Shown: piece after piece, positions 4,461 to 58,300 of the stretch
How the letters are laid out: each line of letters starts with the position of its first letter
Position numbering within the stretch: position 1 is the stretch's first letter
Sequence record: NC_106513.1
Length of the DNA stretch: 64,000 nucleotides
Strand: one strand, 5' to 3'
Source of the DNA: Escherichia phage vB_EcoS_ESCO30
Program-made: the position numbers and the translations under genes
Notes under the pieces: generated by a model
Seen by the model: the letters and a program-made list of their open reading frames with translations, nothing else
Told to the model about the DNA's origin: nothing
Database searches by the model: none

Positions 4461-4490
4461 CCCCTTGATTTTTATAAGTCAAGGGGTTTT
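4461..4490 (+). terminator. Rho-independent terminator-like hairpin (CCCCTTGA...TCAAGGGG + TTTT)
   Basis: GC stem followed by T-run just after the HNH stop. Confidence 0.6.
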
Positions 4491-9218: not shown

Positions 9219-9953
9219 ATGAATCAAGTTAAAATGAATATTACCCGTAATTTCCCGCATATTTCCCGCGTCATGATTTGGGATCTGGACGGCACTATCA
9301 TTAATTCGTTTCATCGTGTAGCGCCTTGCTTTGATAGCGAGGGCAATTTAGATTTAAATAAGTATAAAAATGAAGCCTGCAAACATGATTTAATAATGCA
9401 AGATACACTATTGCCCCTTGTTACATATATGCGCCAGTGCATGAATGACGCAAATACTTTAAACATTATTTGCACCGCTCGACTAATGAGCAAGTCGGAC
9501 TATTATTATTTGCGTAAACAAGGGTTGCGCGGTCGTGGTGATAGTAATATCCGCGTGTTTTCCCGCGATACACTACACAAATATTTTGAGGCTGATAAAG
9601 TTAGCGAGATATACCACAGCAAAGACGCAGTTTATAAAAGTTACTATTTTGGGTTATTCAAACAATTATATCCGAACGCTGATTTTACGATGATTGATGA
9701 TCATAAAGGCGTGCTATCAGCGGCGGCATCATACGGATTTAAAACGCTGGACGCGCAAGCCGTTAACGATATTCTATCAATCGGTGTCACATTGATAGGT
9801 GAAACCTTTATTGATGAATCTCTTGAGGATGATAATGATTATCAGTTCCTAGCCGACCGCCTGCAATTATGTTGGGAAGGTATGACCGAGGAGGAACGCG
9901 CGGAATATAGTTGCAGCCCGCAACAATATATTGAGAAATTAAAAGTTGCGTAA
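9219..9953 (+). CDS. dmp: HAD-family 5'-deoxyribonucleotidase (Dmp-like, 244 aa)
   Basis: N-terminal HAD motif MIWDLDGTIINS (DxDGT); pre-early position as in T5. Confidence 0.65.
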   Translation: MNQVKMNITRNFPHISRVMIWDLDGTIINSFHRVAPCFDSEGNLDLNKYKNEACKHDLIMQDTLLPLVTYMRQCMNDANTLNIICTARLMSKSDYYYLRKQGLRGRGDSNIRVFSRDTLHKYFEADKVSEIYHSKDAVYKSYYFGLFKQLYPNADFTMIDDHKGVLSAAASYGFKTLDAQAVNDILSIGVTLIGETFIDESLEDDNDYQFLADRLQLCWEGMTEEERAEYSCSPQQYIEKLKVA

Positions 9954-9970
9954 TAATTAAAGTTGAAATT

Positions 9971-10007
9971 GTTTCACCCTGCAATTAAAATGGTTGCAGG
10001 GTGAAAC
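9971..10007. terminator. Strong 14-bp-stem hairpin GTTTCACCCTGCAA...TTGCAGGGTGAAAC between convergent genes
   Basis: Perfect inverted repeat read directly; lies between dmp (+) and the minus-strand peptide operon. Confidence 0.6.
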
Positions 10008-15063: not shown

Positions 15064-15234
15064 ATAAGTATAGGATGGGATACTACTCAGTTGGTATCCC
15101 ATTCCTGCATTTTAAAATCCCCTTTACAAATTCGATACGATTATGTATACTATATTCATTGATCGGGAGAACTTCTCCCATAATAGAACGTAAACAAGAA
15201 AAATTAATGCTCTACATGAGGTGTAGGAGATTCT

Positions 15235-15915
15235 ATGGGTCGACAAAAGCTAACAATAAAAGATATAAATATTAGATTAGCTGATCGTGGAATCCAAATT
15301 GTCGGTGAATATGTAAACCAACGTACAAAAACAGTATTTAAATGCCAGAGAGCACACGTTTGGGAAGCAACACCACATTCTATACTCCATATGAGGAGAG
15401 GTTGTCCACACTGCTCCAATAATACAATATCGTTAGATGAAGTTAGTAACAGAATATCTAGTATAGGATATACTCTGTTAAGCAGCTATACTAATGCTAA
15501 AACAAAATTACATCTACGCTGCAATAACGGGCATGACTGTTTCATTACCTTAGATGGATTGACTCAAGGTAAAAGATGTCCTTATTGCTCTCTTAAGTGG
15601 GAGAATGGCGGATTCCTCTATATCATGTCCTCCTCTAGCGGTACTAAAGTAGGCATAAGCTTATACCCTGAGAAACGGTTGAATGAAGTTAAAAGAGAAT
15701 CTGGATTTTCTGACCTGTACTTGTTCACCATGTATCATCTACCTGATAGAGAGACTGCTTTAGATTTAGAAAAGGAAGTTCACAGAGAATATTATAATAA
15801 AAACTGTGGGTTTTCTAATTTTACAGGAAGCACGGAATTTTTTAATGTTGCTCCTGAGGATATAGTAATCTTTCTAAGTAGCTTTGGATTGGAGGATTAT
15901 GGCCACCAATACTAA
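15235..15915 (+). CDS. T5orf172-domain protein with two N-terminal zinc-ribbon repeats (226 aa)
   Basis: Repeats KCQRAHVWE...GCPHCS and RCNNGH...KRCPYCS; C-terminal GFLYIMSS...KVGIS resembles T5orf172/GIY-YIG-like fold. Confidence 0.55.
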   Translation: MGRQKLTIKDINIRLADRGIQIVGEYVNQRTKTVFKCQRAHVWEATPHSILHMRRGCPHCSNNTISLDEVSNRISSIGYTLLSSYTNAKTKLHLRCNNGHDCFITLDGLTQGKRCPYCSLKWENGGFLYIMSSSSGTKVGISLYPEKRLNEVKRESGFSDLYLFTMYHLPDRETALDLEKEVHREYYNKNCGFSNFTGSTEFFNVAPEDIVIFLSSFGLEDYGHQY

Positions 15916-18694: not shown

Positions 18695-20071
18695 ATGACT
18701 ATTGATATTAATAAGCTGAAAGAAGAACTTGGTCTGGGTGATCTGGCTAAATCTCTGGAAGGTCTGACCGCTGCTCAGAAAGCTGCTGAAGCTGAACGTA
18801 TGCGTAAAGAGCAGGAAGAAAAAGAACTGGCTCGTATGAATGACCTGGTTTCTAAAGCAGTTGGCGAAGATCGTCAGAAACTGGAACAAGCTCTGGAACT
18901 GGTTAAGTCTCTGGATGAAAAATCTAAGAAGAGCGCTGAACTGTTTGCACAGACTGTAGAAAAACAGCAGGAAACTATTGTTGGTCTTCAGGATGAAATT
19001 AAATCTCTGCTAGCAGCTCGTGAAGGTCGTTCCTTCGTTGGTGATAGCGTAGCTAAAGCACTGTACGGTACTCAGGAAGCTTTTGAAGATGAAGTTGAAA
19101 AACTAGTTCTTCTGTCTTATATGATGGAGAAGGACGTATTTGAAACTGAACATGGTAAAGCCCACGTTAAGGCTGTCAATGGTTCTTCTTCCGTTTCTAT
19201 GTCTAGCGAAGCATACGAAACTATCTTCTCCACTCGTATTATCCGTGACCTGCAGAAAGAATTAGTAGTTGGCGCACTGTTCGATGAACTGCCAATGTCC
19301 AGCAAAATTCTTACTATGCTCGTTGAACCAGAAGCTGGAAAAGCTACTTGGGTGGATGCTTCCAAATTCGGTACTGACGAAACTGTTGGTGACGAAGTTA
19401 AAGGTACTCTGACTGAAATCAGCTTCAAAACTTACAAGCTGGCTGCTAAGTCCTTCATCACTGATGAAACTGAAGAAGATGCAATCTTCTCCCTACTGCC
19501 TCTGCTGCGTAAGCGTCTGATCGAAGCACATGCCGTTTCTATCGAAGAAGCGTTTATGACTGGTAATGGTACTGGTCAGCCGAAAGGTCTGTTGACTCTG
19601 GCTAGTGAAGATAGTGCTAAAGTTACCACTGAAGCTAAAGCTGATGGTTCTGTACTAGTAACTGCTAAAACCATTTCTAAACTGCGTCGTAAACTGGGCC
19701 GTCATGGTCTAAAACTGAGCAAACTGGTACTGATCGTATCTATGGATGCTTATTACGATCTGCTGGAAGATGAAGAATGGCAGGATGTTGCACAGGTTGG
19801 TAACGATGCTGTTAAACTGCAAGGTCAGGTTGGTCGTATTTATGGTCTGCCGGTTGTAGTTTCTGAGTACTTCCCAGCTAAAGCAGCAGATAAAGAGTTC
19901 GCAGTTATTGTTTATAAAGATAACTTCGTAATGCCGCGTCAGCGTGCTGTTACTGTTGAACGTGAGCGCCAAGCTGGTAAACAGCGTGACGCGTACTACG
20001 TTACTCAGCGTGTTAACCTGCAACGTTACTTTGCAAATGGTGTTGTATCCGGTGCTTACGCTACCGCTTAA
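18695..20071 (+). CDS. Major capsid protein precursor with N-terminal scaffold-like coiled coil (458 aa)
   Basis: Charged coiled-coil N-terminus then HK97-like core; strongly biased codon usage; terminator follows. Confidence 0.8.
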   Translation: MTIDINKLKEELGLGDLAKSLEGLTAAQKAAEAERMRKEQEEKELARMNDLVSKAVGEDRQKLEQALELVKSLDEKSKKSAELFAQTVEKQQETIVGLQDEIKSLLAAREGRSFVGDSVAKALYGTQEAFEDEVEKLVLLSYMMEKDVFETEHGKAHVKAVNGSSSVSMSSEAYETIFSTRIIRDLQKELVVGALFDELPMSSKILTMLVEPEAGKATWVDASKFGTDETVGDEVKGTLTEISFKTYKLAAKSFITDETEEDAIFSLLPLLRKRLIEAHAVSIEEAFMTGNGTGQPKGLLTLASEDSAKVTTEAKADGSVLVTAKTISKLRRKLGRHGLKLSKLVLIVSMDAYYDLLEDEEWQDVAQVGNDAVKLQGQVGRIYGLPVVVSEYFPAKAADKEFAVIVYKDNFVMPRQRAVTVERERQAGKQRDAYYVTQRVNLQRYFANGVVSGAYATA

Positions 20072-20091
20072 TACAGGCTTTTCAGCCGATA

Positions 20092-20116
20092 AGGAGAGCT
20101 TCGGCTCTCCTTTTTT
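20092..20116 (+). terminator. Rho-independent terminator GGAGAGCTTCGGCTCTCC + T-run
   Basis: Perfect 7-bp GC stem, 4-nt loop, TTTTTT. Confidence 0.7.
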
Positions 20117-20130
20117 ATTGGGAAAAATAA

Positions 20131-20643
20131 ATGCAAATCATCACAGCCGAAGATTATAGATTATATGGTGGTTTAAAACGACCTGAATTAGAGTCTGGTG
20201 TAGAAATGATGATTACTGCTGCCAATGCGCTGATTACGAGCCTTCTAGGCATGGATGATGCTGATGCGGTAGACCAGTTAATCAATACAAAACCTACACG
20301 TAGGAAATATTTTCTGAGCTCACCTTCTGCTACCTCCGTAACTAAAGTGACGATTAACGATAATGAGATTGATCCAGAGCAGTATAAGCTATACTCTGAT
20401 GGTGTTATCCTCCTAAAGTTTAATCCTCCAGAAGGTTATATGGATGTAGCATATACACAAGGTGGATTTAACCCAGTGCCTGAAGATCTCAAACTTGCAG
20501 CGTGTATGCTAGTAGATCATTGGCATAAACAAGATTATCGCCAAGCTAAAACAATTGGTGGTGAAACAGTAACCTTCAACAGCACTAAGTCTGGTATTCC
20601 AGAGCATATTCGTACTATTATTGAAGTATATAGGAGAGTATAA
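20131..20643 (+). CDS. Head completion/connector protein (170 aa)
   Basis: Position after capsid gene; preceded by TATTGGGAAAAATAA motif instead of a classical SD. Confidence 0.45.
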   Translation: MQIITAEDYRLYGGLKRPELESGVEMMITAANALITSLLGMDDADAVDQLINTKPTRRKYFLSSPSATSVTKVTINDNEIDPEQYKLYSDGVILLKFNPPEGYMDVAYTQGGFNPVPEDLKLAACMLVDHWHKQDYRQAKTIGGETVTFNSTKSGIPEHIRTIIEVYRRV

Positions 20644-21410
20644 TGTCTCTTTCCGATCTAGCTAAACAAATTATTAAAGAGCAGCTAGATACTGCAGGAC
20701 GATCTGAAAATAATAAGAATACTGTTGTGTACTCTGTTGAGACAGGGTTAAAAGATCCTACCAGAGATGGTACTATTGCTCAAGTATCTTTTAAGTTTTC
20801 AAAACCCGTATCACAAGATCTTCTTGATGTTAGAACAGCCTCCATACTAAAAGCTGTATCCTCTAGTTTAGATCTTTCGGGAGATTTAGGTGCTCTAGAA
20901 AATCTTATACAGGCAACCGCAGGTAAAAAATCTGCTGTAGGTAAAAAACGTTCTACAGGCAGAGTAGAGGTAAACTTTGGAGATCCTAAAGACGTAGAGG
21001 ATGGATACTCAGGTGCAATAACAGGTGCTTCCGGACGTTTCGTGTCTAATAGCAATATGAAAGTTATACTAGAGATAGTTGCTAAAGAGTACTTAATAAA
21101 GGATATGAAAAAGACAGGAGCGCCATTAAAATTTAGAACCGGTCGCTTTGCAAATTCTCTAAAAATTAAAGATGTTATGCTTAGAGACGCAGAGACTAGT
21201 AAAGGTTCTCCTGAATTGAACGTAACATATAATTATATGACTCGTCCATATTCTGTGTTCAACCCCGCAGTATCTACATATAGAAGATTATCTCTACGAC
21301 CTTATCCTGGCGCTAGAAACCCACAAAAACTTATTGGTGAGGCTATAGCAAAAGCTGCAAGAGACCTGATTCACTCCAGATATAAAATTAAGGTTAATCA
21401 AGGAACCTAA
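20643..21410 (+). CDS. Putative neck/tail-attachment protein (255 aa)
   Basis: AGGAG SD, start coupled to upstream stop. Confidence 0.4.
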   Translation: MSLSDLAKQIIKEQLDTAGRSENNKNTVVYSVETGLKDPTRDGTIAQVSFKFSKPVSQDLLDVRTASILKAVSSSLDLSGDLGALENLIQATAGKKSAVGKKRSTGRVEVNFGDPKDVEDGYSGAITGASGRFVSNSNMKVILEIVAKEYLIKDMKKTGAPLKFRTGRFANSLKIKDVMLRDAETSKGSPELNVTYNYMTRPYSVFNPAVSTYRRLSLRPYPGARNPQKLIGEAIAKAARDLIHSRYKIKVNQGT

Positions 21411-21413
21411 TAA

Positions 21414-21899
21414 ATGGACCATAGAACAAGTATTGCACAAGCTATGGTTGACCGAATCTCTAAACAAATGGATGGTTCTCAACCTGACGAATATTTTAAT
21501 AACCTATACGGAAACGTTTCTCGTCAAACTTATAAATTTGAGGAAATACGAGAGTTTCCTTATGTGGCAGTTCATATCGGAACTGAAACTGGGCAGTATC
21601 TTCCTTCGGGCCAACAGTGGATGTTTTTAGAACTTCCAATCCTGGTGTACGATAAAGAGAAAACAGACATTCAAGAGCAACTTGAAAAACTCGTAGCGGA
21701 TATAAAAACCGTTATTGACACAGGTGGAAATTTAGAATATACTGTTAGTAAACCTAATGGATCGACCTTCCCATGTGAGGCAACTGATATGATCATTACA
21801 TCAGTTAGTACAGATGAGGGTCTACTGGCCCCATATGGTTTAGCAGAAATAAATGTAACAGTGAGGTATCAGCCTCCACGTAGGTCACTTCGCAGATAA
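21414..21899 (+). CDS. Putative tail completion protein (161 aa)
   Basis: Position and size only. Confidence 0.4.
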   Translation: MDHRTSIAQAMVDRISKQMDGSQPDEYFNNLYGNVSRQTYKFEEIREFPYVAVHIGTETGQYLPSGQQWMFLELPILVYDKEKTDIQEQLEKLVADIKTVIDTGGNLEYTVSKPNGSTFPCEATDMIITSVSTDEGLLAPYGLAEINVTVRYQPPRRSLRR

Positions 21900-21925
21900 G
21901 TTACAGATTAGGAGAAAATAATTAA

Positions 21926-23317
21926 ATGTCTTTACAACTATTACGTAATACTCGAATCTTCGTGTCTACGGTTAAGACTGGTCATAATAAGACCAACACG
22001 CAAGAGATTCTAGTTCAGGATGATATTTCTTGGGGTCAGGACAGTAACTCAACAGATATTACTGTTAATGAAGCTGGTCCGCGTCCAACTCGTGGTTCTA
22101 AACGTTTTAACGACTCTTTAAACGCAGCTGAGTGGAGTTTTTCTACTTACATCCTACCGTATAAAGATAAAACTACTAGCAAACAAATTGTTCCTGACTA
22201 TATGTTATGGCATGCACTTTCTAGTGGTAAAGCTATTAACTTAGAAGGTAATACAGGGGCACACAATAACACAACTAACTTCATGGTTAACTTCAAAGAT
22301 AACTCCTATCATGAGTTAGCAATGTTACATATTTATATTCTGACTGATAAAGCATGGAGTTATATTGATTCCTGTCAGATTAATCAGGCAGAGGTTAACG
22401 TTGATATCGAAGATATTGGCCGTGTAACTTGGTCTGGTAATGGTAATCAGCTTATTCCTCTGGATGAGCAACCATTTGATCCGGATGAAATAGGTATTGA
22501 TGATGAAACTTATATGACTATCCAGGGTTCTTATATTAAGAACAAACTAACGATCTTGAAGATCAAGGACATGGATACCAATAAGTCTTATGACATACCG
22601 ATTACCGGTGGTACTTTTACTATTAACAACAACATTACTTATTTAACACCTAATGTAATGTCCCGTGTTACTATTCCAATTGGTTCCTTTACCGGTGCTT
22701 TTGAATTAACTGGTTCATTAACTGCTTATCTGAATGATAAATCTCTTGGTTCTATGGAACTGTATAAAGATCTTATCAAAACTCTGAAGGTAGTTAACCG
22801 CTTCGAAATCGCTTTAGTACTTGGTGGCGAATACGATGATGAACGTCCTGCAGCTATTCTGGTAGCTAAACAAGCGCACGTTAATATTCCTACTATTGAA
22901 ACTGATGATGTACTTGGTACTTCAGTAGAGTTTAAAGCTATTCCATCTGATCTGGATGCTGGTGATGAGGGTTACTTAGGATTTTCTAGTAAATATACCA
23001 AAACAACTATTAATAACTTGATTGTTAATGGTGATGGTGCTACTGATGCTGTAACCGCAATTACTGTTAAATCTGCCGGTGATGCTACTTCTGTTCGGAC
23101 TGGACAAACTCTTCAGATGAGTGTTGAAGTTACTCCTTCTTCCGCAAGGAATAAGGATGTTACCTGGGCTATCACTGCCGGTGATGCAGCTACTATCAAT
23201 GCAACAGGACTATTAACAGCACATGCTAGTAAAACTGGTGCAGTAACTGTAGAAGCTACTGCTAAAGATGGTTCTGGAGTTAAAGGTACTAAACAGATTA
23301 CTGTAACAGGTGGTTAA
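21926..23317 (+). CDS. Major tail tube protein with C-terminal Ig-like (Big_2-type) domain (463 aa)
   Basis: C-terminal segment ITVKSAGDATSVRTGQTLQMSVEVTP...VTVEATAKDGSG typical of Big_2; position before chaperone and tape measure genes. Confidence 0.65.
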   Translation: MSLQLLRNTRIFVSTVKTGHNKTNTQEILVQDDISWGQDSNSTDITVNEAGPRPTRGSKRFNDSLNAAEWSFSTYILPYKDKTTSKQIVPDYMLWHALSSGKAINLEGNTGAHNNTTNFMVNFKDNSYHELAMLHIYILTDKAWSYIDSCQINQAEVNVDIEDIGRVTWSGNGNQLIPLDEQPFDPDEIGIDDETYMTIQGSYIKNKLTILKIKDMDTNKSYDIPITGGTFTINNNITYLTPNVMSRVTIPIGSFTGAFELTGSLTAYLNDKSLGSMELYKDLIKTLKVVNRFEIALVLGGEYDDERPAAILVAKQAHVNIPTIETDDVLGTSVEFKAIPSDLDAGDEGYLGFSSKYTKTTINNLIVNGDGATDAVTAITVKSAGDATSVRTGQTLQMSVEVTPSSARNKDVTWAITAGDAATINATGLLTAHASKTGAVTVEATAKDGSGVKGTKQITVTGG

Positions 23318-23321
23318 TTAA

Positions 23322-24218
23322 ATGTTTTATTCTCTCATGCGAGAGTCTAAAATAGTTATTGAGTACGATGGTAGGGGGTATCATTTCGATGCCCTCTCTA
23401 ATTATGATGCTAGTACGTCTTTTCAAGAGTTTAAGACTCTTAGACGTACTATCCATAATCGTACTAACTATGCAGACTCTATTATTAATGCTCAAGATCC
23501 TTCATCTATTTCATTGGCAATAAATTTCAGTACTACGCTTATTGAATCTAATTTCTTTGATTGGATGGGATTCACGCGTGAGGGAAATTCTTTATTTTTG
23601 CCAAGAAATACTCCCAATATTGAACCTATTATGTTCAATATGTATATTATTAATTATAATAATAGCTGTATTTATTTCGAAAACTGTTATGTATCAACAG
23701 TTGATTTTTCTCTAGATAAGAGTGTACCAATTCTAAATGTTGGTATTGAGTCTGGAAAATTCTCTGAAGTATCTACTTTCCGTGATGGATATACAATTAC
23801 ACAAGGTGAAGTACTTCCGTATAGTCCTCCAGCTGTGTATACTAATAGCGCGCCGCTGCCGGCATTAATTTCAGCATCTATGTCCTTCCAACAACAATGT
23901 TCTTGGAGAGAAGATAGAAGTATATTTGATATAAACAAAGTTTATACTAATAAACGAGCTTATGTCAATGAAATGAATGCTTCCGCAACACTAGCTTTCT
24001 ATTACGTTAAGAGATTGGTAGGAGATAAGTTCTTGAATCTAGACCCTGAAACAAGAACTCCACTAATTATTAAAAATAAGTATGTTTCTATAACATTCCC
24101 TTTAGCACGTATTTCAAAACGCCTAAACTTCTCAGATTTGTATCAGGTAGAGTATGATGTAATTCCTACTGCTGATTCAGATCCTGTAGAAATAAACTTC
24201 TTTGGAGAAAGAAAATAA
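23322..24218 (+). CDS. Hypothetical tail protein (298 aa)
   Basis: AGGTGG SD; late-operon context. Confidence 0.4.
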   Translation: MFYSLMRESKIVIEYDGRGYHFDALSNYDASTSFQEFKTLRRTIHNRTNYADSIINAQDPSSISLAINFSTTLIESNFFDWMGFTREGNSLFLPRNTPNIEPIMFNMYIINYNNSCIYFENCYVSTVDFSLDKSVPILNVGIESGKFSEVSTFRDGYTITQGEVLPYSPPAVYTNSAPLPALISASMSFQQQCSWREDRSIFDINKVYTNKRAYVNEMNASATLAFYYVKRLVGDKFLNLDPETRTPLIIKNKYVSITFPLARISKRLNFSDLYQVEYDVIPTADSDPVEINFFGERK

Positions 24219-24622
24219 TGATTAACTTAAAAGATATTACTCTAGAAACTCGTACTGTCACTCTTTCATACCCAGGTATGCCGAACTTTAAGCTAGAGCT
24301 TAATTATATGTCTCGTGCTACTTCTAAACGAGTTATCACCTCTGCTAAGCGTGACGAGTGGGTTAATGGTACTTTGATTCAGGTACAAGATGATGATAAG
24401 TTTATTGAAGCTTTCGTTGATGCTGCGATTAAAGGTTGGACTGGTTTGACTGTAGGTGACGTTGAAAAACTGATGCTGATCGAAACAGATGCTGATCCTG
24501 CTACTGAAGTTCCATTTAGTCGTGATAATGCTGTAATGCTTATGCAGAACTCTGCTGCGTTTGATTCTTGGATCAACCAGACAGTGTTCCACTTAGACAC
24601 TTTTCGTAGCTCAAAAGCGTAA
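24218..24622 (+). CDS. Putative tail assembly chaperone (134 aa)
   Basis: Canonical position between tail tube and tape measure genes. Confidence 0.45.
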   Translation: MINLKDITLETRTVTLSYPGMPNFKLELNYMSRATSKRVITSAKRDEWVNGTLIQVQDDDKFIEAFVDAAIKGWTGLTVGDVEKLMLIETDADPATEVPFSRDNAVMLMQNSAAFDSWINQTVFHLDTFRSSKA

Positions 24623-24683
24623 AGAATTACTAGATGCTGTTGCTGACTTTGCTGATAAGTGTATTAAAAGCTCAGCATCTAAA

Positions 24684-25052
24684 ATGACTAAACAACAATA
24701 TTTAATACTTTGTGAATCAATGGGTATAGAGCCTGATCCTAAGGCTATGCCTGTTGAACTTGAAGACTTTCCACCTATTGTAGCTATTAGTATGAATATT
24801 TATAATAGTCTAGTTGACTGTTTCATACCTGGTGACTTCCCTATTTTTATAGGTAAAGATAAAGCTGCTTTAGGTGTTTTATTTGATATTTATGGGATTA
24901 CTGATCCTATAGAGAAAGAATTTGTTCTACACATTATCAATATATTTGATGCTAAAGCTGTAGACGCTGCACGTAAACGTGCTGAGAAGCATAAGCCGCA
25001 AAATGGTAGAATACCTAACGTTAAGCCACATGCCAAATCTCGAGCACGGTAA
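24684..25052 (+). CDS. Putative chaperone extension ORF (122 aa; frame open from about 24597)
   Basis: No SD before the ATG; reading frame overlaps the end of the upstream ORF in the +1 frame. Confidence 0.4.
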   Translation: MTKQQYLILCESMGIEPDPKAMPVELEDFPPIVAISMNIYNSLVDCFIPGDFPIFIGKDKAALGVLFDIYGITDPIEKEFVLHIINIFDAKAVDAARKRAEKHKPQNGRIPNVKPHAKSRAR

Positions 25053-25087
25053 AAGTTTCCTCCAATGGGCGTTCCACGATGAGGCTT

Positions 25088-25118
25088 GGCTCTGGGTGAT
25101 TTGCCCAGAGCCTTTTTT
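25088..25118 (+). terminator. Rho-independent terminator GGCTCTGGG...CCCAGAGCC + T-run
   Basis: 9-bp stem followed by TTTTTT. Confidence 0.7.
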
Positions 25119-25135
25119 ATTGGGAAAAATAAAAT

Positions 25136-28100
25136 ATGACTGATAAGCTAATACGAGAATTATTAATAGACGTTAAGCAGAAGGGGGCAACTCGTACTGC
25201 AAAGTCTATTGAAAACGTATCTGATGCGTTAGAAAACGCTGCTGCTGCTTCCGAACTGACAAATGAGCAGTTAGGTAAAATGCCCAAAACCCTTTACTCC
25301 ATTGAGAGGGCAGCAGATAGAGCAGCAAAAAGTCTTACTAAAATGCAAGCTAGTAGGGGCATGGCTGGTATCACTAAATCCATTGATGGTATTGGTGATA
25401 AGCTAGATTACCTGGCTATCCAACTTATTGAAGTAACAGATAAACTAGAAGTTGGATTCGATGGAGTTTCTAAATCTGTTAAAGCAATGGGTAATGATGT
25501 TGCCGCTGCAACGGAGAAAGTTCAAGATAGGCTGTATGATACTAATAGAGCCTTAGGTGGTACAGCTAGAGGTTTTAATGATACTGCTGGTGCCGCTGGT
25601 AGAGCTTCTAGAGCTATTGGTAATACTTCTGGTTCAGCACGTGGTGCAACTCGTGATTTTGCAGCAATGGCTAAGATAGGTGGTAGTTTACCTATTATGT
25701 ACGCAGCTCTTGCTTCCAACATCTTCGTTTTGCAATCTGCATTCGAACAACTTAAATTAGGTGACCAGTTAAATCGTCTAGAAAAATTTGGGGTTATAGT
25801 AGGTACTCAGACAGGTACTCCTGTTCAGTCCCTTGCTAGATCACTACAAGAAGCTGCTGGATATGCTATTTCTTTTGAAGAAGCAATGAGACAGGCATCT
25901 TCAGCGTCTGCTTATGGATTTGATGCCGAACAACTTAATAAATTTGGTTTAGTAGCTCGTCGTGCTGCTGCTGTTCTTGGCGTTGATATGACTGACGCAC
26001 TTAACCGTGTAATTAAGGGTGTATCTAAACAAGAAATCGAACTTCTGGATGAACTTGGTGTTACTATTCGTCTTAACGATGCTTATGCTGATTACGTTAA
26101 ACAGTTAAATGCTGCAAACACGGGTATAACATATAATATTAATAGCCTTACTACCTTCCAGAAACAGCAAGCGTATGCTAATGCTGTTATAGCAGAATCT
26201 ACTAAGCGTTTTGGTTACTTAGATGAAGTTTTACGTGCTACTCCATGGGAGCAATTTGCTGCTAACGCAGATGCTGCACTAAGAACAATACAACAAGCCG
26301 CTGCTAAATACCTAGGGCCAGTAATTGATGCTATCAACACAGTATTTTATACTTCTCAGGCTTCTGTATCTGCTGAAGCAGCTAGAGCTCAAGAAAAAAC
26401 TAATAGACAGATAGATCCTACTAACGTTGGTGCTGTTGCTTTAAGTTTGGCTGCTTCTGAAGAAGGGTATAATAAAGCTCTAGATATGTATAAGGAATCT
26501 CTTGATAAGCGTAATAAGCTAAAATCTGAGTTCGATAAACGAATGGAACAAGCAGATTTCTATACAAAATTAGCTATACGTCAAGTTGGTGAGGGTATTC
26601 CTGTTGGTCTTGCAGCAGCAGGTGCTTCGGAAGCTAATAAACAATTTGTAGCAGAAACTGCCGCTATGGGACTACAAGTAGCACGCTTGGATAAAGAAGT
26701 TACTGATTCTACAGAGAATCTCAATGCTTGGAAATCAGCGTATCAAGCTGCTGGGGCTGCTGCTGCAAAGGCTAGTCCAGAGTTTCAGAAGCAAATTAAT
26801 CTACAGAGAGATACTACTGATCCTGGTGCTGTATACGATTTTAACTCTACTGTATTAAAAGGTCTAACTGAGCAGCAGAAAGCGTACAATCAGACTAAGA
26901 AAACTGCTAGTGACTTAGCTAATGATATACAGAACGTTGCTCAGAGTACAGATACTGCTGCTAAAACTAGTGCTACCTTAGCAGATGCTATAAAAAACAT
27001 AGAATCTCTATCTCTAGGTACTGGTAAGAGTGCTGATGAGTACGTTAAAAATCTTAACCTAGGCTACAATACTCTGTCTGAAATGAAAACTGCGTCTCAG
27101 GCCTTATCTGAGTACGTTAGACTAACTGGTAATGAGACTAAGAACCAGTTAGCAGTCCAACAGAAGATAGCCGATGTATATAACCAAACTAAGGATAAAG
27201 AAAAAGCACAGGAAGCTGGTAGGCGTTTAGAACTCCAACAGTTAGAAGAGCAAGAAGCTGCTTTACGCCGTGTTCTTCAAACAAACCAGGGAAATAAAGC
27301 TGTTGAGAAAGAAATTGAAAAAATTCAGCTGGAGAAACTTAAACTTACCAATCAGGGTATGGAGGCTCAGAAGAAGGTTAAGGATTATACAGATAAAATT
27401 CTTGGTGTAGACCGTGAGATAGCTCTTCTGAATGACCGTACTATGACTAGCACTCAGTATAGATTAGCACAGTTAAAGTTAGAACTAACTATAGAGGAAG
27501 AAAAATACGAGTGGTACTTAAAACAAGCGGATAAACAAAAAGAGGCAGAACAGTCTAGACGTGCTCAAGCACAGATAAGCAGAGAGTTATGGGAAGCAGA
27601 GAAACAAGCTACTGCTACTCATGTATCCGCCCTTATGGATGCCTTAGAGGTTAGCCAAACGCAGAGAAATGTCACTGGTCAGTCCCAGATTCTCACTGAA
27701 AGGTTATCTATTCTGCAGCAGCAGCTGGAGCTGTCTAAAGGTAATACTGAAGAAGAAATTAAATATCGTAATGAGATTTATAAAACTTCGGCAGCCTTAG
27801 AACAGCTTAAAAAGCAAAGAGAGGATCAAACGTACAAATCAGTCATATCCTCACTAGGGGGTACATTCACTCCTACCAATGGATTATCTGGTGATGATAA
27901 AGAGTTTGCTGATTTTGAGAATAGAATGTCTATGTATGATCAGGCTATAGCTAAGATGTCAGAAGTGGATTCTGCCTCTACAGCATTGGCTAACAGCATA
28001 GGTAATTTCTCCTTAGCAGTGGTGGCTAATGCACAAGATAGCTTGGATAGTATAACAACCATATCTGCAGGTATGCAGATGGTGGGACAGATGATGGCAT

Positions 28101-28816
28101 ATTCCGCTAACCAGCAAATAAGTGCAATAGACCAGGCTATTGCAGCAGAACAGAAGCGTGATGGTAAATCTGAGGAATCTAAAGCTAAAATCAAGAAGTT
28201 GGAGGCAGAAAAGACTAAGATACAGCAGCGAGAAGCTAAAAAGCAAATAATCATATCTACAGCCGTAGCTATGATGAACGCTGCAGCTACCCGTCCATTC
28301 TTACCATTAGGGTTAACGATGATGGCCACTGCGGCTGCTGCAGGCGCACTATCCTTAGCCTCTGCTTCTAGTGCATCCTCTATACCCTCTGTGGATTCTG
28401 GAGCAAATACAACTAGTTACTTAACATTAGGAGAGCGTCAAAAGAATATAGATGTGTCCATGTCTGCTAACGCAGGTGAATTATCTTATATCAGAGGCGA
28501 TAAAGGTATAGGTAGTGCTAACTCTTTCGTTCCTCGTGCTGAGGGTGGTAATATGTACCCAGGGGTTAGTTACCAAATGGGTGAACATGGTACAGAAGTA
28601 GTTACCCCTATGGTTCCTATGAAAGCTACACCTAATGATGAGCTAAAAGCCTCATCTAACTCAACTTCAGGAAGACCTATCATCTTGAATATTAGTGCTA
28701 TGGATGCTGCAAGTTTTAGAGAGTTTGCTTCTAGTAATAGTAGTGCTCTAAGAGACGCAGTAGAATTAGCTCTGAATGAGAACGGTGCTAGTCTGAAAAC
28801 ATTAGGAAATTCTTAA
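25136..28816 (+). CDS. Tape measure protein (pb2-like, 1226 aa)
   Basis: Very long, Ala/Gln-rich coiled-coil protein with hydrophobic segments near the C-terminus; canonical position. Confidence 0.85.
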   Translation: MTDKLIRELLIDVKQKGATRTAKSIENVSDALENAAAASELTNEQLGKMPKTLYSIERAADRAAKSLTKMQASRGMAGITKSIDGIGDKLDYLAIQLIEVTDKLEVGFDGVSKSVKAMGNDVAAATEKVQDRLYDTNRALGGTARGFNDTAGAAGRASRAIGNTSGSARGATRDFAAMAKIGGSLPIMYAALASNIFVLQSAFEQLKLGDQLNRLEKFGVIVGTQTGTPVQSLARSLQEAAGYAISFEEAMRQASSASAYGFDAEQLNKFGLVARRAAAVLGVDMTDALNRVIKGVSKQEIELLDELGVTIRLNDAYADYVKQLNAANTGITYNINSLTTFQKQQAYANAVIAESTKRFGYLDEVLRATPWEQFAANADAALRTIQQAAAKYLGPVIDAINTVFYTSQASVSAEAARAQEKTNRQIDPTNVGAVALSLAASEEGYNKALDMYKESLDKRNKLKSEFDKRMEQADFYTKLAIRQVGEGIPVGLAAAGASEANKQFVAETAAMGLQVARLDKEVTDSTENLNAWKSAYQAAGAAAAKASPEFQKQINLQRDTTDPGAVYDFNSTVLKGLTEQQKAYNQTKKTASDLANDIQNVAQSTDTAAKTSATLADAIKNIESLSLGTGKSADEYVKNLNLGYNTLSEMKTASQALSEYVRLTGNETKNQLAVQQKIADVYNQTKDKEKAQEAGRRLELQQLEEQEAALRRVLQTNQGNKAVEKEIEKIQLEKLKLTNQGMEAQKKVKDYTDKILGVDREIALLNDRTMTSTQYRLAQLKLELTIEEEKYEWYLKQADKQKEAEQSRRAQAQISRELWEAEKQATATHVSALMDALEVSQTQRNVTGQSQILTERLSILQQQLELSKGNTEEEIKYRNEIYKTSAALEQLKKQREDQTYKSVISSLGGTFTPTNGLSGDDKEFADFENRMSMYDQAIAKMSEVDSASTALANSIGNFSLAVVANAQDSLDSITTISAGMQMVGQMMAYSANQQISAIDQAIAAEQKRDGKSEESKAKIKKLEAEKTKIQQREAKKQIIISTAVAMMNAAATRPFLPLGLTMMATAAAAGALSLASASSASSIPSVDSGANTTSYLTLGERQKNIDVSMSANAGELSYIRGDKGIGSANSFVPRAEGGNMYPGVSYQMGEHGTEVVTPMVPMKATPNDELKASSNSTSGRPIILNISAMDAASFREFASSNSSALRDAVELALNENGASLKTLGNS

Positions 28817-28822
28817 AACTGG

Positions 28823-28850
28823 AGGAGGACTTTGAGTCCTCCTTTTCTTT
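28823..28850 (+). terminator. Terminator hairpin GGAGGAC...GTCCTCC + T-rich run
   Basis: Stem-loop then TTTTCTTT just after the tape measure stop. Confidence 0.6.
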
Positions 28851-28925
28851 ATGGAAAAATAAAAATTTCTTGATAAAATTTTCTAATACTATTATAATAT
28901 TGTTATTAAAGAGGAGAAATTAACT

Positions 28926-29540
28926 ATGAGATTACCAGACCCATACACGAATCCAGAACTTTCAGGATTAGGATTCGAAAGTGTTAACCTGATTGATAAT
29001 GACCCAGTAATTCGTGATGAGTTACCAAATGGTAAAGTTAACGAAGTTAAGGTATCTGCTCAATACTGGGGTATAAATATTTCTTATCCAGAATTATTTC
29101 CAGATGAATATAGTGTTTTAGATGCTTTTATTCTAGAATATAAAAGGACTGGTAGTTATATAGATGTTATATTACCCCAATACGAAGCTTTTAGAGTTAG
29201 AGGTAATACTAGTCTAGTAAATATACCTGCTGGACAGAAGGGTTCTAATATAACTATGGATACAAAAGGACTTCTCACAGGTATTCCAAAACCAGGGGAT
29301 CTATTTAAGCTATCTAACCATCCAAAAGTATATAAAATAACATCATTCAATAAATCAGGCAATACGTGGTCTATAAACTTATACCCTGATTTATTTATAA
29401 CTACTACTGGGGCTGAGAAACCAGTGTTTAACGGAATACTATTTAGAACAAAACTCATGAATGGTGATGCTTTCGGATCTACATTAAATAATAACGGAAC
29501 ATATTCCGGCATCTCATTAAATTTACGGGAAAGTTTATGA
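28926..29540 (+). CDS. Distal tail protein (Dit-like, 204 aa)
   Basis: Position directly after tape measure gene; AGAGGAG SD. Confidence 0.6.
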   Translation: MRLPDPYTNPELSGLGFESVNLIDNDPVIRDELPNGKVNEVKVSAQYWGINISYPELFPDEYSVLDAFILEYKRTGSYIDVILPQYEAFRVRGNTSLVNIPAGQKGSNITMDTKGLLTGIPKPGDLFKLSNHPKVYKITSFNKSGNTWSINLYPDLFITTTGAEKPVFNGILFRTKLMNGDAFGSTLNNNGTYSGISLNLRESL

Positions 29541-38852: not shown

Positions 38853-38885
38853 ACCCCAGTGGACAAAATCCACTGGGGTTTTTTC
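38853..38885. terminator. Bidirectional terminator CCCCAGTGGA...TCCACTGGGG flanked by A-run and T-run
   Basis: 10-bp stem between convergent late (+) and early (-) blocks. Confidence 0.75.
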
Positions 38886-43750: not shown

Positions 43751-44524
43751 TTAGTCATCCAGATCGCTTGCAGCTTCCTGGTCAATACCTTTCTGGGAAC
43801 CAGCATTGCTGTTACCAGATTTGGCATCATCATCTTTATTCTCACGACCTTCCATGAAGGCTAGAATTGCTTCTTTCTGCTCTTCATAGGTAGGAACCGG
43901 ATAGGTTTGTTCCAGAGAAGGAACTTTTTCGAACTTAATGATGTCGCCATCTTCATCACACATAGCTTCACCGATCAGATCTACATCCGCAGCATATTGC
44001 TTAGATTCCGCACTGTTAGGATCTTGCAGCTTAATCTGGAACTGCATAGCAGCAATCTGCTGTACATCATACTCAGTATCGAAACCTTTACCTTTTTTCT
44101 CGATAGAAATATCAATATCAAACGGAGTTGCCAGGTTCAACTGCTTCATGATAGACTGGATGCCTTTCAGAATAGTAGCCTTGACTTCCATTACTTTCAG
44201 TTTGTTATCAGAACGGTCAATAACAAAGGCGATATAGTTTTTCTTCGGTTTCAGCGGAACACGATTACCATCTTTATCCAGCTCTTTCTCGAAGAAGCCC
44301 ATCTCATGAACCGGATCAGCTTTACCACGAACAAAGCTCTCTTTGTCACGGTTAAAACGGAGACATTCGAAAGGAGCTACGTTACCCTCTTTATTAGTCA
44401 GCCAATAGACATAACGTGGAAGAACACCAGAAACGATACGAACACGAGTGATACCGTTGTTGAACTTCAGGAATTCGATTTTATCGTTAGAACCGCCAGT
44501 AGTTTCGCCCCAAGACTTAGCCAT
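43751..44524 (-). CDS. Putative ssDNA-binding protein with acidic C-terminal tail (257 aa)
   Basis: Acidic C-terminus ...QEAASDLDD as in phage SSBs; replication-gene context. Confidence 0.45.
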   Translation of the reverse strand: MAKSWGETTGGSNDKIEFLKFNNGITRVRIVSGVLPRYVYWLTNKEGNVAPFECLRFNRDKESFVRGKADPVHEMGFFEKELDKDGNRVPLKPKKNYIAFVIDRSDNKLKVMEVKATILKGIQSIMKQLNLATPFDIDISIEKKGKGFDTEYDVQQIAAMQFQIKLQDPNSAESKQYAADVDLIGEAMCDEDGDIIKFEKVPSLEQTYPVPTYEEQKEAILAFMEGRENKDDDAKSGNSNAGSQKGIDQEAASDLDD

Positions 44525-52459: not shown

Positions 52460-53227
52460 TTATTCAGCAGCCGCAGCTTTTGCATCCAGTTTAGCACGCT
52501 TAGCGGCACCATCATAGTCCTTAGCAACCAGACCACGACGAGACAGCATAGATTTAACACCGCGCTCAGATTTACCAGTTTTCTCAGCGATCTCAGCAAC
52601 AGTCATGTTAACCAGATCCAGGCCTTCTAACAGATCTTCACGAGTTTTAGCACTTGAGGTTTCCTGTACCGGCATAGCAGCGATACGACCTTCACGAAGC
52701 AGACTCAGAGCTTTACCGCGGATCTGCTTGATATTACGACCGAAGTGAGCAGCGATAGCTTCAATAGTAGCACCAGCAACAACCTGATTAACAAAATCAG
52801 TTTCTTCATCCGGAGTGAAGGAACGAACAGCAGCAGCTTTTTCGGTTGGCTTAACAGAAGCGGTCATTTCCAGACTCAGGATCTTACCCTGTACCTGTTT
52901 AGCACCGAACTGACCACCAGCTACAGCAGCAGCGATTTCAGCATAGGTATACTGACCAGCATGAGCATTCAGGAAATCAACCAGTTCAGCTTCCTGCTCA
53001 GGAGTCCACGGGGATTTCTGTACTTCGTTAGCTTTTTGTACTTCGAAACCTTCTTTACGCAGCTTAGAGCCAACAGAGCGAGCGGTAACGTCTTTGCCAG
53101 TTTCAGCAGCCAGTTCAGCGGCGATAGCAGCTACTTGTTCTTGAGAGATTACATCAACACCCAGAGCAGTGGCTTTTGCTTTCAGAGACTCGGTTACACC
53201 TTCTACGTTCCAGTTCAGTTTAGACAT
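52460..53227 (-). CDS. DNA-binding protein with four tandem HTH (sigma region-4-like) repeats (255 aa)
   Basis: Four repeats of about 45 aa matching T-P-E/D-x-E...AEIAA...G...K.LSL...G read from the translation. Confidence 0.55.
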   Translation of the reverse strand: MSKLNWNVEGVTESLKAKATALGVDVISQEQVAAIAAELAAETGKDVTARSVGSKLRKEGFEVQKANEVQKSPWTPEQEAELVDFLNAHAGQYTYAEIAAAVAGGQFGAKQVQGKILSLEMTASVKPTEKAAAVRSFTPDEETDFVNQVVAGATIEAIAAHFGRNIKQIRGKALSLLREGRIAAMPVQETSSAKTREDLLEGLDLVNMTVAEIAEKTGKSERGVKSMLSRRGLVAKDYDGAAKRAKLDAKAAAAE

Positions 53228-56214: not shown

Positions 56215-56232
56215 AGGAGAGCCGAAGCTCTC
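56215..56232. repeat. Hairpin GGAGAGCCGAAGCTCTCC; its reverse complement is identical to the capsid terminator stem at 20092-20109
   Basis: Read directly; T-run on plus strand only. Confidence 0.6.
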
Positions 56233-56242
56233 CTTTTCTTTA

Positions 56243-57998: not shown

Positions 57999-58029
57999 AT
58001 TTAAACTCCTCTCTCAAATTTATGAATCT

Positions 58030-58058
58030 ATTATACAGAAAAATTTTCCTGAAAGCAA
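58030..58058 (-). promoter_or_regulatory. Strong sigma70 early promoter TTGCTT-17-TATAAT with A/T-rich UP-like region (matches my recollection of T5 P_N25)
   Basis: Minus-strand reading gives AAATTTATTTGCTTTCAGGAAAATTTTTCTGTATAATAGATTCATAAATTTGAGAGAGGAG; identity to P_N25 is from memory. Confidence 0.75.
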
Positions 58059-58066
58059 ATAAATTT

Positions 58067-58300
58067 TTACGATTCCTTGAGCAAAGAAGAAAGTTCAGCA
58101 TATACTTTATCTAATTCAAACCCTATGCGAAGAGATACGTTAGTCCTCCGTTGTTTAAGTAACCACTCGGATATGTTAGGGATGCCAGCTAGTCTGTGTG
58201 GTACCACCCTACATAGCTTTTCCGAAGTATCGTAAGCAGGAACTTTACGCTCTTTTACTGGAAACTTCCTTGTTTCCCATTTTTTATTCTTCACTGTCAT
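58067..58300 (-). CDS. Hypothetical basic protein (about 77 aa)
   Basis: Track ORF trimmed to internal ATG at 58300 with GGAGAG SD to limit overlap with the HNH gene. Confidence 0.35.
   Translation of the reverse strand: MTVKNKKWETRKFPVKERKVPAYDTSEKLCRVVPHRLAGIPNISEWLLKQRRTNVSLRIGFELDKVYAELSSLLKES

Follow-up and report, generated by a model that had tools for sequence, protein, structure and literature searches.

The 64,000-nt stretch of DNA analysed here, referred to below as the window, belongs to a T5-like phage with 92–93% identity to Tequintavirus genomes and the same gene order. Three junctions of its late operon are considered: J1, after the major head protein gene (18695–20071); J2, after the tail assembly chaperone gene (24684–25052); and J3, after the tape measure gene (25136–28816), all on the + strand, as are their parts and the two late promoters described below. 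At each of them a GC-rich hairpin with a U-rich tract of about 7–9 nt lies past the stop codon and is co-oriented with the upstream gene, as expected of an intrinsic terminator. The T5 record (NC_005859) annotates putative rho-independent terminators at all three orthologous positions, in near-identical sequence, after the genes for the major head protein, chaperone T5.142 and the tape measure protein.

At J1, the hairpin GGAGAGCTTCGGCTCTCC (20093–20110; GGAGAGC-UUCG-GCUCUCC, −12.0 kcal/mol, extendable to 20091–20112) begins 22 nt past the stop codon of the major head protein gene and leads into the U-tract TTTTTTATT (20111–20119). The segment that follows, GGGAAAAATAA (20120–20130), ends at the ATG of the head-tail adaptor gene (20131–20643). 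It comprises a weak Shine-Dalgarno (SD) sequence, GGGA (20120–20123), 7 nt before the ATG, and an A-rich spacer, AAAATAA, which together with the start codon occupies 20124–20133 and includes an in-frame TAA at 20128–20130. At J2, the hairpin (25088–25112; −19.1 kcal/mol) begins 36 nt past the chaperone stop codon, and its tail (25113–25121) is again TTTTTTATT. The segment GGGAAAAATAAAAT (25122–25135) carries GGGA (25122–25125), 10 nt before the ATG at 25136, and the A-rich spacer AAAATAAAAT, which with the ATG of the tape measure gene spans 25126–25138. A sequence-only reading of the window had described a motif, of which the U-tract is the left half, that runs straight from the terminator into the start codon; this is so at J1, but at J2 two additional bases (AT) separate the shared 17-mer from the ATG.

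The J3 hairpin (28821–28845; −11.9 kcal/mol with its T-rich tail TTTTCTTTAT, which reaches 28852) begins 5 nt past the tape measure stop codon. It is followed by an exact copy of the 11-mer GGAAAAATAAA (28853–28863), which the sequence-only reading called a variant; the interval that it assigned to terminator and variant, 28847–28865, covers the T-tract and the motif but leaves the hairpin outside. The 11-mer lies 7–17 nt upstream of the −35 hexamer of the late promoter PG25 (core TTGATA-17-TATAAT, 28870–28898, 11/12 consensus match), within the A/T-rich, UP-element-like stretch GGAAAAATAAAAATTTC (28853–28869, about −52 to −36), which belongs to the T5 feature 'promoter P-G 25'. In T5, P-G25 directly follows the third terminator and starts at T-ATGGAAAAATAAAAATTTC. 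GGAAAAATAAAAATTTC thus occupies the place of an UP element or A/T block (about −60 to −38, directly upstream of a −35/−10 pair), and we read the J3 motif, from its sequence context, as belonging to the A/T-rich segment that precedes the core of PG25, a sigma-70 late promoter. Behind this promoter, a strong SD, GAGGAG, with its ATG (28911–28928; −9.1 kcal/mol) opens the distal tail protein gene (28926–29540). A second late sigma-70 promoter, PJ5 (TTGACA-17-TATACT, 21715–21743, 11/12 match), lies inside the tail-terminator gene, upstream of the major tail protein gene, and is identical in sequence to T5 'promoter P-J 5', which is located inside T5.146. T5 late promoters are of the sigma-70 type with UP elements, PJ5 and PG25 being ordinary sigma-70 promoters, and in T5-type promoters the −43 region is preceded by an A/T-rich block, AAAAATT. 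The late kinetics of PG25 in T5 were established by primer extension (PMC7472727). The literature searched yielded neither the PG25 sequence string nor a map of transcription starts or termination in T5 or a T5-like phage, and an Rfam scan of the whole window at the gathering threshold gave 0 matches.

The recurrence of the motif at late-operon terminators exceeds chance. A 23-nt exact repeat, CCTTTTTTATTGGGAAAAATAAA, at 20109 (J1) and 25111 (J2) ranks second by length among the exact direct repeats of the window, against longest repeats of 14–19 nt in 60 dinucleotide-preserving shuffles. The 17-mer TTATTGGGAAAAATAAA has exact copies at 20115 (J1) and 25117 (J2), and with up to three mismatches it finds 5 matches where 0.72 are expected, a number reached in 0 of 100 shuffles. 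Three exact copies of the 11-mer are present in the window, each just 3′ of a late-operon terminator; the motif search in a related phage that the sequence-only reading had suggested gave the same picture, since Spc35 (bases 1–106,922) carries exact GGAAAAATAAA at J1, J2 and J3 only. The central observation of that reading, a motif repeated after the late terminators at three sites, is therefore confirmed. Within Tequintavirus and Epseptimavirus-like genomes the exact identity between J1 and J2 amounts to 23–26 nt, which on the sequences compared is more than a generic terminator and ribosome-binding site (RBS) need share. The identity of the J3 11-mer to J1 and J2 likewise seems to exceed what base composition predicts, at a rough, uncomputed estimate of ~0.1 chance copies per genome. 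Because the identity among the three sites goes beyond generic need, they may have arisen by common descent, been homogenized by gene conversion or have a further function in common.

The evidence supports 20131 and 25136 as genuine start codons; the claim that they lack an SD was an interpretation that does not hold. Each site has a G-triplet in the SD register, and GGGA pairs at normal spacing, 5–10 nt 5′ of the start codon, with UCCU of the 16S 3′ end through 4 bp including one G·U (−4.2 kcal/mol). This is weak by the standard of 52 genes in the window (median −6.35 kcal/mol), 12 of which have a duplex equal to or weaker than those of J1 and J2, placing the two sites in the lowest quartile; such an energy is reached in just 13.6% of random windows. 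The start-site profile of the 52 genes has a G peak at −12 to −8 and at least 50% A at −5 to −1, and in a leave-one-out comparison J2 ranked second and J1 ninth. Accessibility of the two start sites is comparable to that of other late genes, and comparable sites of the GGG type, such as ACGGGAAAGTTTATG at 29537, are used by other low-copy genes in the window. Judged by sequence, J1 and J2 thus appear to be weak SDs in the typical A-rich start-site context of this phage, with nothing distinctive about them. The suggestion of a translation-initiation element in place of an SD is borne out insofar as the motif lies in the initiation regions of the adaptor and tape measure genes, but GGGA is itself a weak SD.

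Comparison with relatives places this weak SD in a wider pattern. In Proteus and Vibrio-type relatives, canonical SDs (AAGGAG, AGGAGGT, AGGTGA and AGGT) are found at the same position after the U-tract: the Proteus phage J2 reads TTTTTTATAGGTGAAATTCATATG, with AGGTGA in the SD slot, Vibrio-type J1 reads TTTTTTCGTTTAAGGAGAAATATATG and TTTTTTCTTATAAGGAGAGAATATG, and Vibrio-type J2 reads TTTTTTGCTATAGGAGGTAACATG and TATTTTTATAGGTAAAATATG, with AGGAGGT or AGGT in the slot. To this set of distant relatives an IMG/VR profile search contributed only 4 more loci. Given this positional homology, the order terminator, U-tract, SD, A-rich spacer and ATG appears to be family-wide, with GGG occupying the SD slot. 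Relatives have between 6 and 11 nt from GG(G) to the ATG, a variation expected of an SD, and the J1 variants GGGA, AGGA and GGA are all 3–4 nt long. Whether the SD at J1 and J2 has been selected to be weak is uncertain, since Vibrio-type relatives carry strong SDs at J1, behind a different hairpin. The uninterrupted J2 of the window is the common form among relatives, whereas in T5 a homing-endonuclease gene, T5.141, is inserted right after TTTTTTATT and the GGGAAAAATAAA half is missing; the T5 tape measure gene instead uses CAGGAAAACATTAGATG and is coupled to T5.141 by an ATGA overlap. Because of this insertion and substitution, the right half of J2 appears replaceable by another weak-SD site.

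The two hairpins differ in how they are conserved among relatives. Compensatory double changes at 4 pairs preserve the J2 hairpin across relatives, and the consensus fold contains no pairing at the start site. In the window and in Klebsiella-type phages, UCCAAU on the upstream side of the J2 terminator could pair over a long range with AUUGGG, but we rejected this interaction because Proteus phages cannot form it and the start site stays free in the consensus fold. Relatives also show 1-nt indels (GGG/GGGG) and changes in T- and A-run length at J2; because of these indels and a frame relation that differs between the window and Proteus phages, the stretch is not a coding extension of the chaperone gene by frameshifting. 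The J1 hairpin, on the other hand, is identical in Klebsiella- and Proteus-phage relatives, without a compensatory change from T5-like to Proteus phages, although identity in the proteins on either side falls to 58% and 32%. In a 660-nt alignment that extends to Proteus phages, conservation is highest in the J1 block (93–97% identity against 40–70% in the flanks), an invariance that, on this alignment, seems to go beyond purely structural constraint. The hairpin with its T-run nevertheless recurs in unrelated Pseudomonas, Acinetobacter, Vibrio and Erwinia phages, and a second copy of the hairpin type lies within the window at 56216–56233, which weakens the case for a special recognition site; the recurrence in unrelated phages points to convergence on an optimum, possibly set by the UUCG tetraloop.

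We propose that the motif is most probably a terminator U-tract joined to a weak RBS at J1 and J2, and to the A/T-rich upstream part of PG25 at J3. It would then be a composite, with several ordinary signals crowded together where a T5-type late operon has its only real gaps between genes. The RBS of the next gene would directly follow a strong intrinsic terminator (a GC hairpin with UUUUUUAUU) at J1 and J2, and would consist of the weak GGGA and an A-rich, unstructured spacer of the kind found before most start codons of the phage. Neither the genes for the adaptor, neck protein and tail terminator protein after J1 nor that for the tape measure protein after J2 would have a dedicated promoter, the next ones being PJ5 and PG25, respectively; these genes would therefore be expressed from read-through transcripts, with de novo initiation at the weak site. 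Partial read-through across J1 and J2 may be assumed, and an attenuator followed by a weak start site would set a low output of low-copy virion parts, whose genes lie downstream of those for high-copy products, namely the major head protein, and the tail tube and chaperones. PJ5 would restart transcription ahead of the major tail protein gene. At J3, the order T-tract, GG, A-tract would represent the terminator tail plus the upstream part of PG25, which would restart transcription for the tail-tip genes. If GGGA acts as an SD, changing GGG to CCC is predicted to cause a strong loss of expression, GGGA to GGAG a gain, and AAAAATAAA to ACGCGTACG a moderate loss.

A/U-rich leaders bind ribosomal protein S1 and can support initiation with poor SDs. 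It is thus conceivable, though unlikely, that the AAAAATAAA tract acts as an SD-independent enhancer that recruits the 30S subunit through S1 or through its lack of structure, the GGG being incidental. A residues dominate the spacer, as they do before most start codons of the phage, the SD duplex is weak at −4.2 kcal/mol, and the region is largely unpaired. However, the G-triplet lies exactly in the SD register, GGG, GGA or AGG is present in all enterobacterial relatives, distant relatives have full SDs, and few random windows attain the observed pairing energy. The A-rich spacer is moreover generic to the genome rather than special to the adaptor and tape measure genes. Such an enhancer complements the weak-SD explanation more than it excludes it.

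An element that tunes the terminator would be the only single function to fit J1, J2 and J3 alike. Terminator efficiency in vitro can be altered by the sequence immediately past the release site, and GG with an A-tract behind the U-tract could modulate termination through the stability of the downstream duplex or through U:A pairing in the read-through RNA. We consider this improbable. A weak hairpin between U-tract and A-tract, with GGG in its loop, does appear in minimum-energy folds, but its stability is marginal (−1.9 kcal/mol, z = −0.39) and the centroid folds lack it, and any purine-rich start site is automatically complementary to an adjoining U-tract; we therefore rejected it as a structural feature. 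In addition, strong terminators elsewhere in the window (4461–4486 and 38854–38878) do without the motif, and the Proteus-phage J3 has no GG.

The identity of J1 and J2 over 23–26 nt, the sharing of an 11-mer with J3 that occurs nowhere else in ~107 kb of a related genome, and the conservation of the J1 block would also suit a cis-acting operator shared by the late-operon terminators and bound by a phage factor, such as a translational repressor, an antiterminator or a processing nuclease. That the sequence is a specific operator, common to the two attenuators and partly to the PG25 junction, which a T5-encoded late factor would read as RNA or DNA to coordinate read-through into, or translation of, the low-copy genes for head completion and the tape measure, is very improbable, as is a shared operator of this kind in general. 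Beyond the T-tract and GG, J1 does not match J2 in the Klebsiella- and Proteus-phage clades, T5 lacks the right half at J2, variants in homopolymer length are tolerated among relatives, and conservation is no greater than expected of a terminator with a start site. We know of no such T5 factor. If real, the operator would be an undescribed regulatory layer of T5 late expression and a handle on the early-to-late switch, which to our knowledge is still unexplained.

The sequence-only reading also raised a late promoter, and its third copy is indeed the A/T-rich upstream region of one, PG25. That RNA polymerase restarts behind the terminators at J1 and J2 from a promoter, or part of one, is extremely improbable: the same 11-mer lies upstream of a genuine late promoter at J3, and CTGATA at J2 and the −35 hexamer TTGATA of PG25 are equally far from the motif, but there is no −35/−10 pair of at least 9/12, at the 16–18-bp spacing of a sigma-70 promoter, near 20110–20170 or 25110–25180, and no promoter is annotated there in T5, whose known late promoters are standard sigma-70 promoters. 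A start site would fall in coding sequence downstream of the ATG, and because the motif adjoins the ATG, a transcript initiated at this point would carry no leader for the gene and so not include its RBS. A decayed PG25-like promoter in the 5′ end of the tape measure gene was rejected as well, as the best −10 candidates after CTGATA match 2–4 of 6 positions, without the key bases, and the hexamer is coding, with TGATAA encoding a conserved Asp-Lys of the tape measure N-terminus. The T4-type late promoter TATAAATA is absent at −10 from J1 and J2, where the sequence is GGGAAAAATAAATG or GGGAAAAATAAAATATG.

Overall, with terminators and PG25 already annotated in T5, the motif is ordinary gene-expression punctuation rather than a new signal. 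The late operon of T5-like phages appears to contain three conserved terminators and two internal sigma-70 promoters, and the genes directly behind the two promoter-less terminators would start from weak-SD, A-rich sites. These cassettes of terminator and weak RBS hint at a way in which the head:connector and tube:tape-measure ratios may be set. In its present form the finding is of little consequence; its practical value lies in annotation and phage engineering, J1 and J2 being natural insertion points where relatives already carry homing-endonuclease genes.

The composite that we propose resembles three known kinds of element. (i) Attenuating terminators within phage late operons share with J1 and J2 the hairpin and U-tract after high-copy genes, with promoter-less low-copy genes next; in phage late operons, a high-copy gene, a leaky terminator and low-copy genes set the ratios of structural proteins, a likeness that we draw from general knowledge. 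(ii) The weak or non-canonical, S1-assisted SD sites of E. coli and its phages are similar in their 4-nt SD, normal spacing and A-rich, unstructured context. (iii) UP elements and −43 A/T blocks of T5 early and late promoters of the PN25 and PG25 class are matched by J3, but a core promoter lies downstream at J3 only, whereas J1 and J2 have an ATG in its place.

The repeat shared by the junctions after the major head protein (J1), chaperone (J2) and tape measure (J3) genes is real and non-random, and it is a composite of known, ordinary signals that have been annotated before in T5. J1 reads GGAGAGCTTCGGCTCTCC-TTTTTTATT-GGGAAAAATAA-ATG (ATG at 20131), J2 reads GGCTCTGGGTGATTTGCCCAGAGCC-TTTTTTATT-GGGAAAAATAAAAT-ATG (ATG at 25136) and J3 reads ...GTCCTCC-TTTTCTTTAT-GGAAAAATAAAAATTTC-TTGATA.... 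The motif that the sequence-only reading had described after late-gene terminators is present at all three sites. The exact stretch common to J1 and J2 is 23 nt, the second longest exact repeat in the window, versus a maximum of 19 nt in 60 dinucleotide-preserving shuffles. GGAAAAATAAA matches exactly at these three junctions only, both in the window and in Salmonella phage Spc35 (107 kb of genome). Tequintavirus genomes such as Spc35 are 92-93% identical to the window region and have the same gene order: major head protein (18695-20071), head-tail adaptor (20131-20643), neck and tail terminator, major tail protein (21926-23317), minor tail protein (23322-24218), two chaperones (24218-24622 and 24684-25052), tape measure (25136-28816) and distal tail protein (28926-29540). 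In the T5 RefSeq record, the major head protein, T5.142 chaperone and tape measure genes are each followed by a putative rho-independent terminator, promoter P-J5 is placed within the tail-terminator gene, and promoter P-G25 adjoins the third terminator directly 3'.

Since the P-G25 feature of T5 begins with T-ATGGAAAAATAAAAATTTCTTGATA..., the supposed variant at J3 is the A/T-rich upstream portion of the late promoter PG25, whose core (TTGATA-17-TATAAT, 11/12 match) lies at 28870-28898; the PJ5 orthologue is at 21715-21743. In T5, both PJ5 and PG25 belong to the sigma-70 class, show late kinetics and have UP elements (PMC7472727); in promoters of the T5 type, the A/T-rich block AAAAATT precedes the -43 region (PMC3326045). 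The proposal of a late promoter therefore holds at J3, as part of PG25, but not at J1 or J2, where we searched for a sigma-70-like -35/-10 pair and found none, and where the motif abuts the ATG or stops 2 nt short of it, leaving any transcript begun there without the gene's own ribosome-binding site.

The start codons at J1 and J2, previously read as having no Shine-Dalgarno (SD) sequence, instead have a weak one in a typical A-rich start site. GGGA, 7 nt (J1) or 10 nt (J2) from the ATG, pairs with the 16S 3' end (UCCU) in a 4-bp duplex including one G.U pair (-4.2 kcal/mol). The median duplex energy across the 52 window genes is -6.35 kcal/mol, with 12 genes equal to or weaker than -4.2 kcal/mol, a value attained by only 13.6% of random windows. 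Start sites of these genes show a G peak at -12 to -8 and at least 50% A at -5 to -1, and a leave-one-out weight matrix over all 52 ranks J2 second and J1 ninth; the part of the motif 3' of the U-tract is therefore the generic start-site pattern of the phage, with comparable sites at TTGGAGAAAAATAATAATG (52460-53227) and AGAGGAAATAAAATATG (43751-44524).

The motif is retained at J1 and J2 in 30 IMG/VR T5-like loci, with varying homopolymer lengths and J1 variants GGA and AGGA. Klebsiella-type phages (adaptor 66% identical) have CCTTTTTTATTGGGTAAAATATG at J1 and CCTTTTTTATTGGAAAAAATCATG at J2, Proteus phages (32%) the unchanged hairpin plus TTTTTTATTGGGTAAAA at J1 and TTTTTTATAGGTGAAATTCATATG at J2, and Vibrio-type phages (20-28%) TTTTTTCGTTTAAGGAGAAATATATG or TTTTTTCTTATAAGGAGAGAATATG at J1 and TTTTTTGCTATAGGAGGTAACATG or TATTTTTATAGGTAAAATATG at J2. 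These junction sequences show a family-wide order of hairpin, U-tract, SD, A-rich spacer and ATG, in which GGG holds the position of a canonical SD, its distance to the ATG varying from 6 to 11 nt in relatives, as for an SD. Pairing of the J2 hairpin is preserved by four compensatory changes, and the J2 consensus fold shows no pairing at the start site, whose accessibility is similar to that of other late genes. At J2 in T5, the homing-endonuclease gene T5.141 (L038, 15543-16319) is inserted directly 3' of TTTTTTATT; CAGGAAAACATTAGATGA then provides the start of the tape measure gene, in overlap with the stop codon of T5.141. The part of the motif 3' of the U-tract is thus dispensable there.

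In relatives, free-standing homing-endonuclease-like genes have inserted at J1 as well as at J2. In three IMG/VR genomes (L003, L009 and L025, around 9290-9990), the gap from the major head protein stop codon to the J1 terminator holds a Cys-rich ORF of ~190 aa with a palindromic promoter-like region upstream of it. Directly 3' of the large terminase stop codon, a 13-bp hairpin without a T-tract (GGATGGGATACTACTCAGTTGGTATCCCATTC, 15073-15104) lies at the start of a 66-aa ORF (15075-15275) and upstream of a 226-aa ORF (15235-15915), a position corresponding to the T5.154 endonuclease gene.

The J1/J2 identity of 23-26 nt in T5/Epseptimavirus-like clades, and the 11-mer common to J3 and J1/J2, exceed the need of a generic terminator and start site. 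In a 660-nt alignment that extends to Proteus phages, the J1 block is the most conserved part (identity of 93-97% versus 40-70% in the flanks), and the major head protein is only 58% identical. Convergence explains this in part, because the UUCG-tetraloop hairpin of J1 with its T-run also occurs in unrelated phages and again in the window. The excess would suit gene conversion between J1 and J2, tuning of the terminator by the A-tract that follows it, or an operator that the sites share for some phage-encoded factor, yet each is improbable since J1 and J2 diverge in other clades and T5 J2 is without the right half. The second hairpin copy (56216-56233, minus strand GGAGAGCTTCGGCTCTCC) is located in the early region, with a minus-strand gene on either side. 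Read on the minus strand, it has an A-run before it and TTTGCTGTATATGGGTTATAGTG after it; read on the plus strand, it leads into a good T-run (TTTTCTTTATTATTTTTT) and may thus terminate transcription that is bidirectional or on the plus strand (antisense).

Returning to the composite of terminator and weak start site, the stretches from J1 to PJ5 and from J2 to PG25 contain no promoter, which would leave the adaptor, neck, tail-terminator and tape measure genes to be expressed by read-through of strong-looking terminators. Translation of the read-through transcripts would have to start de novo, at weak sites set as near the hairpin as the ribosome permits (18 and 23 nt). Among the genes that precede J1 and J2 are those for the most abundant T5 virion components (major head protein, tail tube), and products of the genes just 3' are required in a few to a dozen copies; thus it is plausible that an attenuator plus weak start site sets virion part ratios. 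After J3, PG25 and the strong SD of the distal tail protein gene (GAGGAG, -9.1 kcal/mol) would restart tail-tip gene expression. The J3 start site ATTAAAGAGGAGAAATTAACTATG (28903-28928) matches the ribosome-binding site of pQE-type vectors, and TCGTAAAAATTTATTTGCTTTCAGGAAAATTTTTCTGTATAATAGATTCATAAATTTGAGAGAGGAGTTTAAATATG (57999-58077, minus strand) matches PN25, the 'T5 promoter' of expression vectors. The ATTAAAGAGGAGAAATTAACTATG string is present in cloning primers in 14 papers.

From the chaperone stop codon to the J2 terminator, a 35-nt block (AAAGTTTCCTCCAATGGGCGTTCCACGATGAGGCTT, 25053-25087) is near-invariant across T5-like, Klebsiella-type and Proteus-phage relatives. A coding role is unlikely, because relatives show a GGG/GGGG indel and its relation to the chaperone frame varies by clade; the consensus fold pairs its anti-SD-like CCUCC with GAGG. 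In the region 24596-24700, the second chaperone gene (24684-25052) is virtually without an SD (-0.1 kcal/mol), and its frame is open for 27 codons 5' of the ATG, overlapping the last ~6 codons of the first chaperone gene (24218-24622). The pair looks like a candidate G/GT-type programmed frameshift, for which +1 or -2 would be needed here, possibly at ACT-TTT-CGT.

At the left end of the window, a dense repeat array (19-650) holds five palindromic units of ~28 nt (AATGCGAATGATAATGATTCGCATT type), three copies of TGTCGGATTTGCACA, and an exact 17-mer, GTTATCCACAGACTTAT, present twice (314-330 and 375-391) with the DnaA-box-like TTATCCACA. This array resembles the non-coding region, rich in repeats and DnaA boxes, where FST and SST meet in T5 and BF23.
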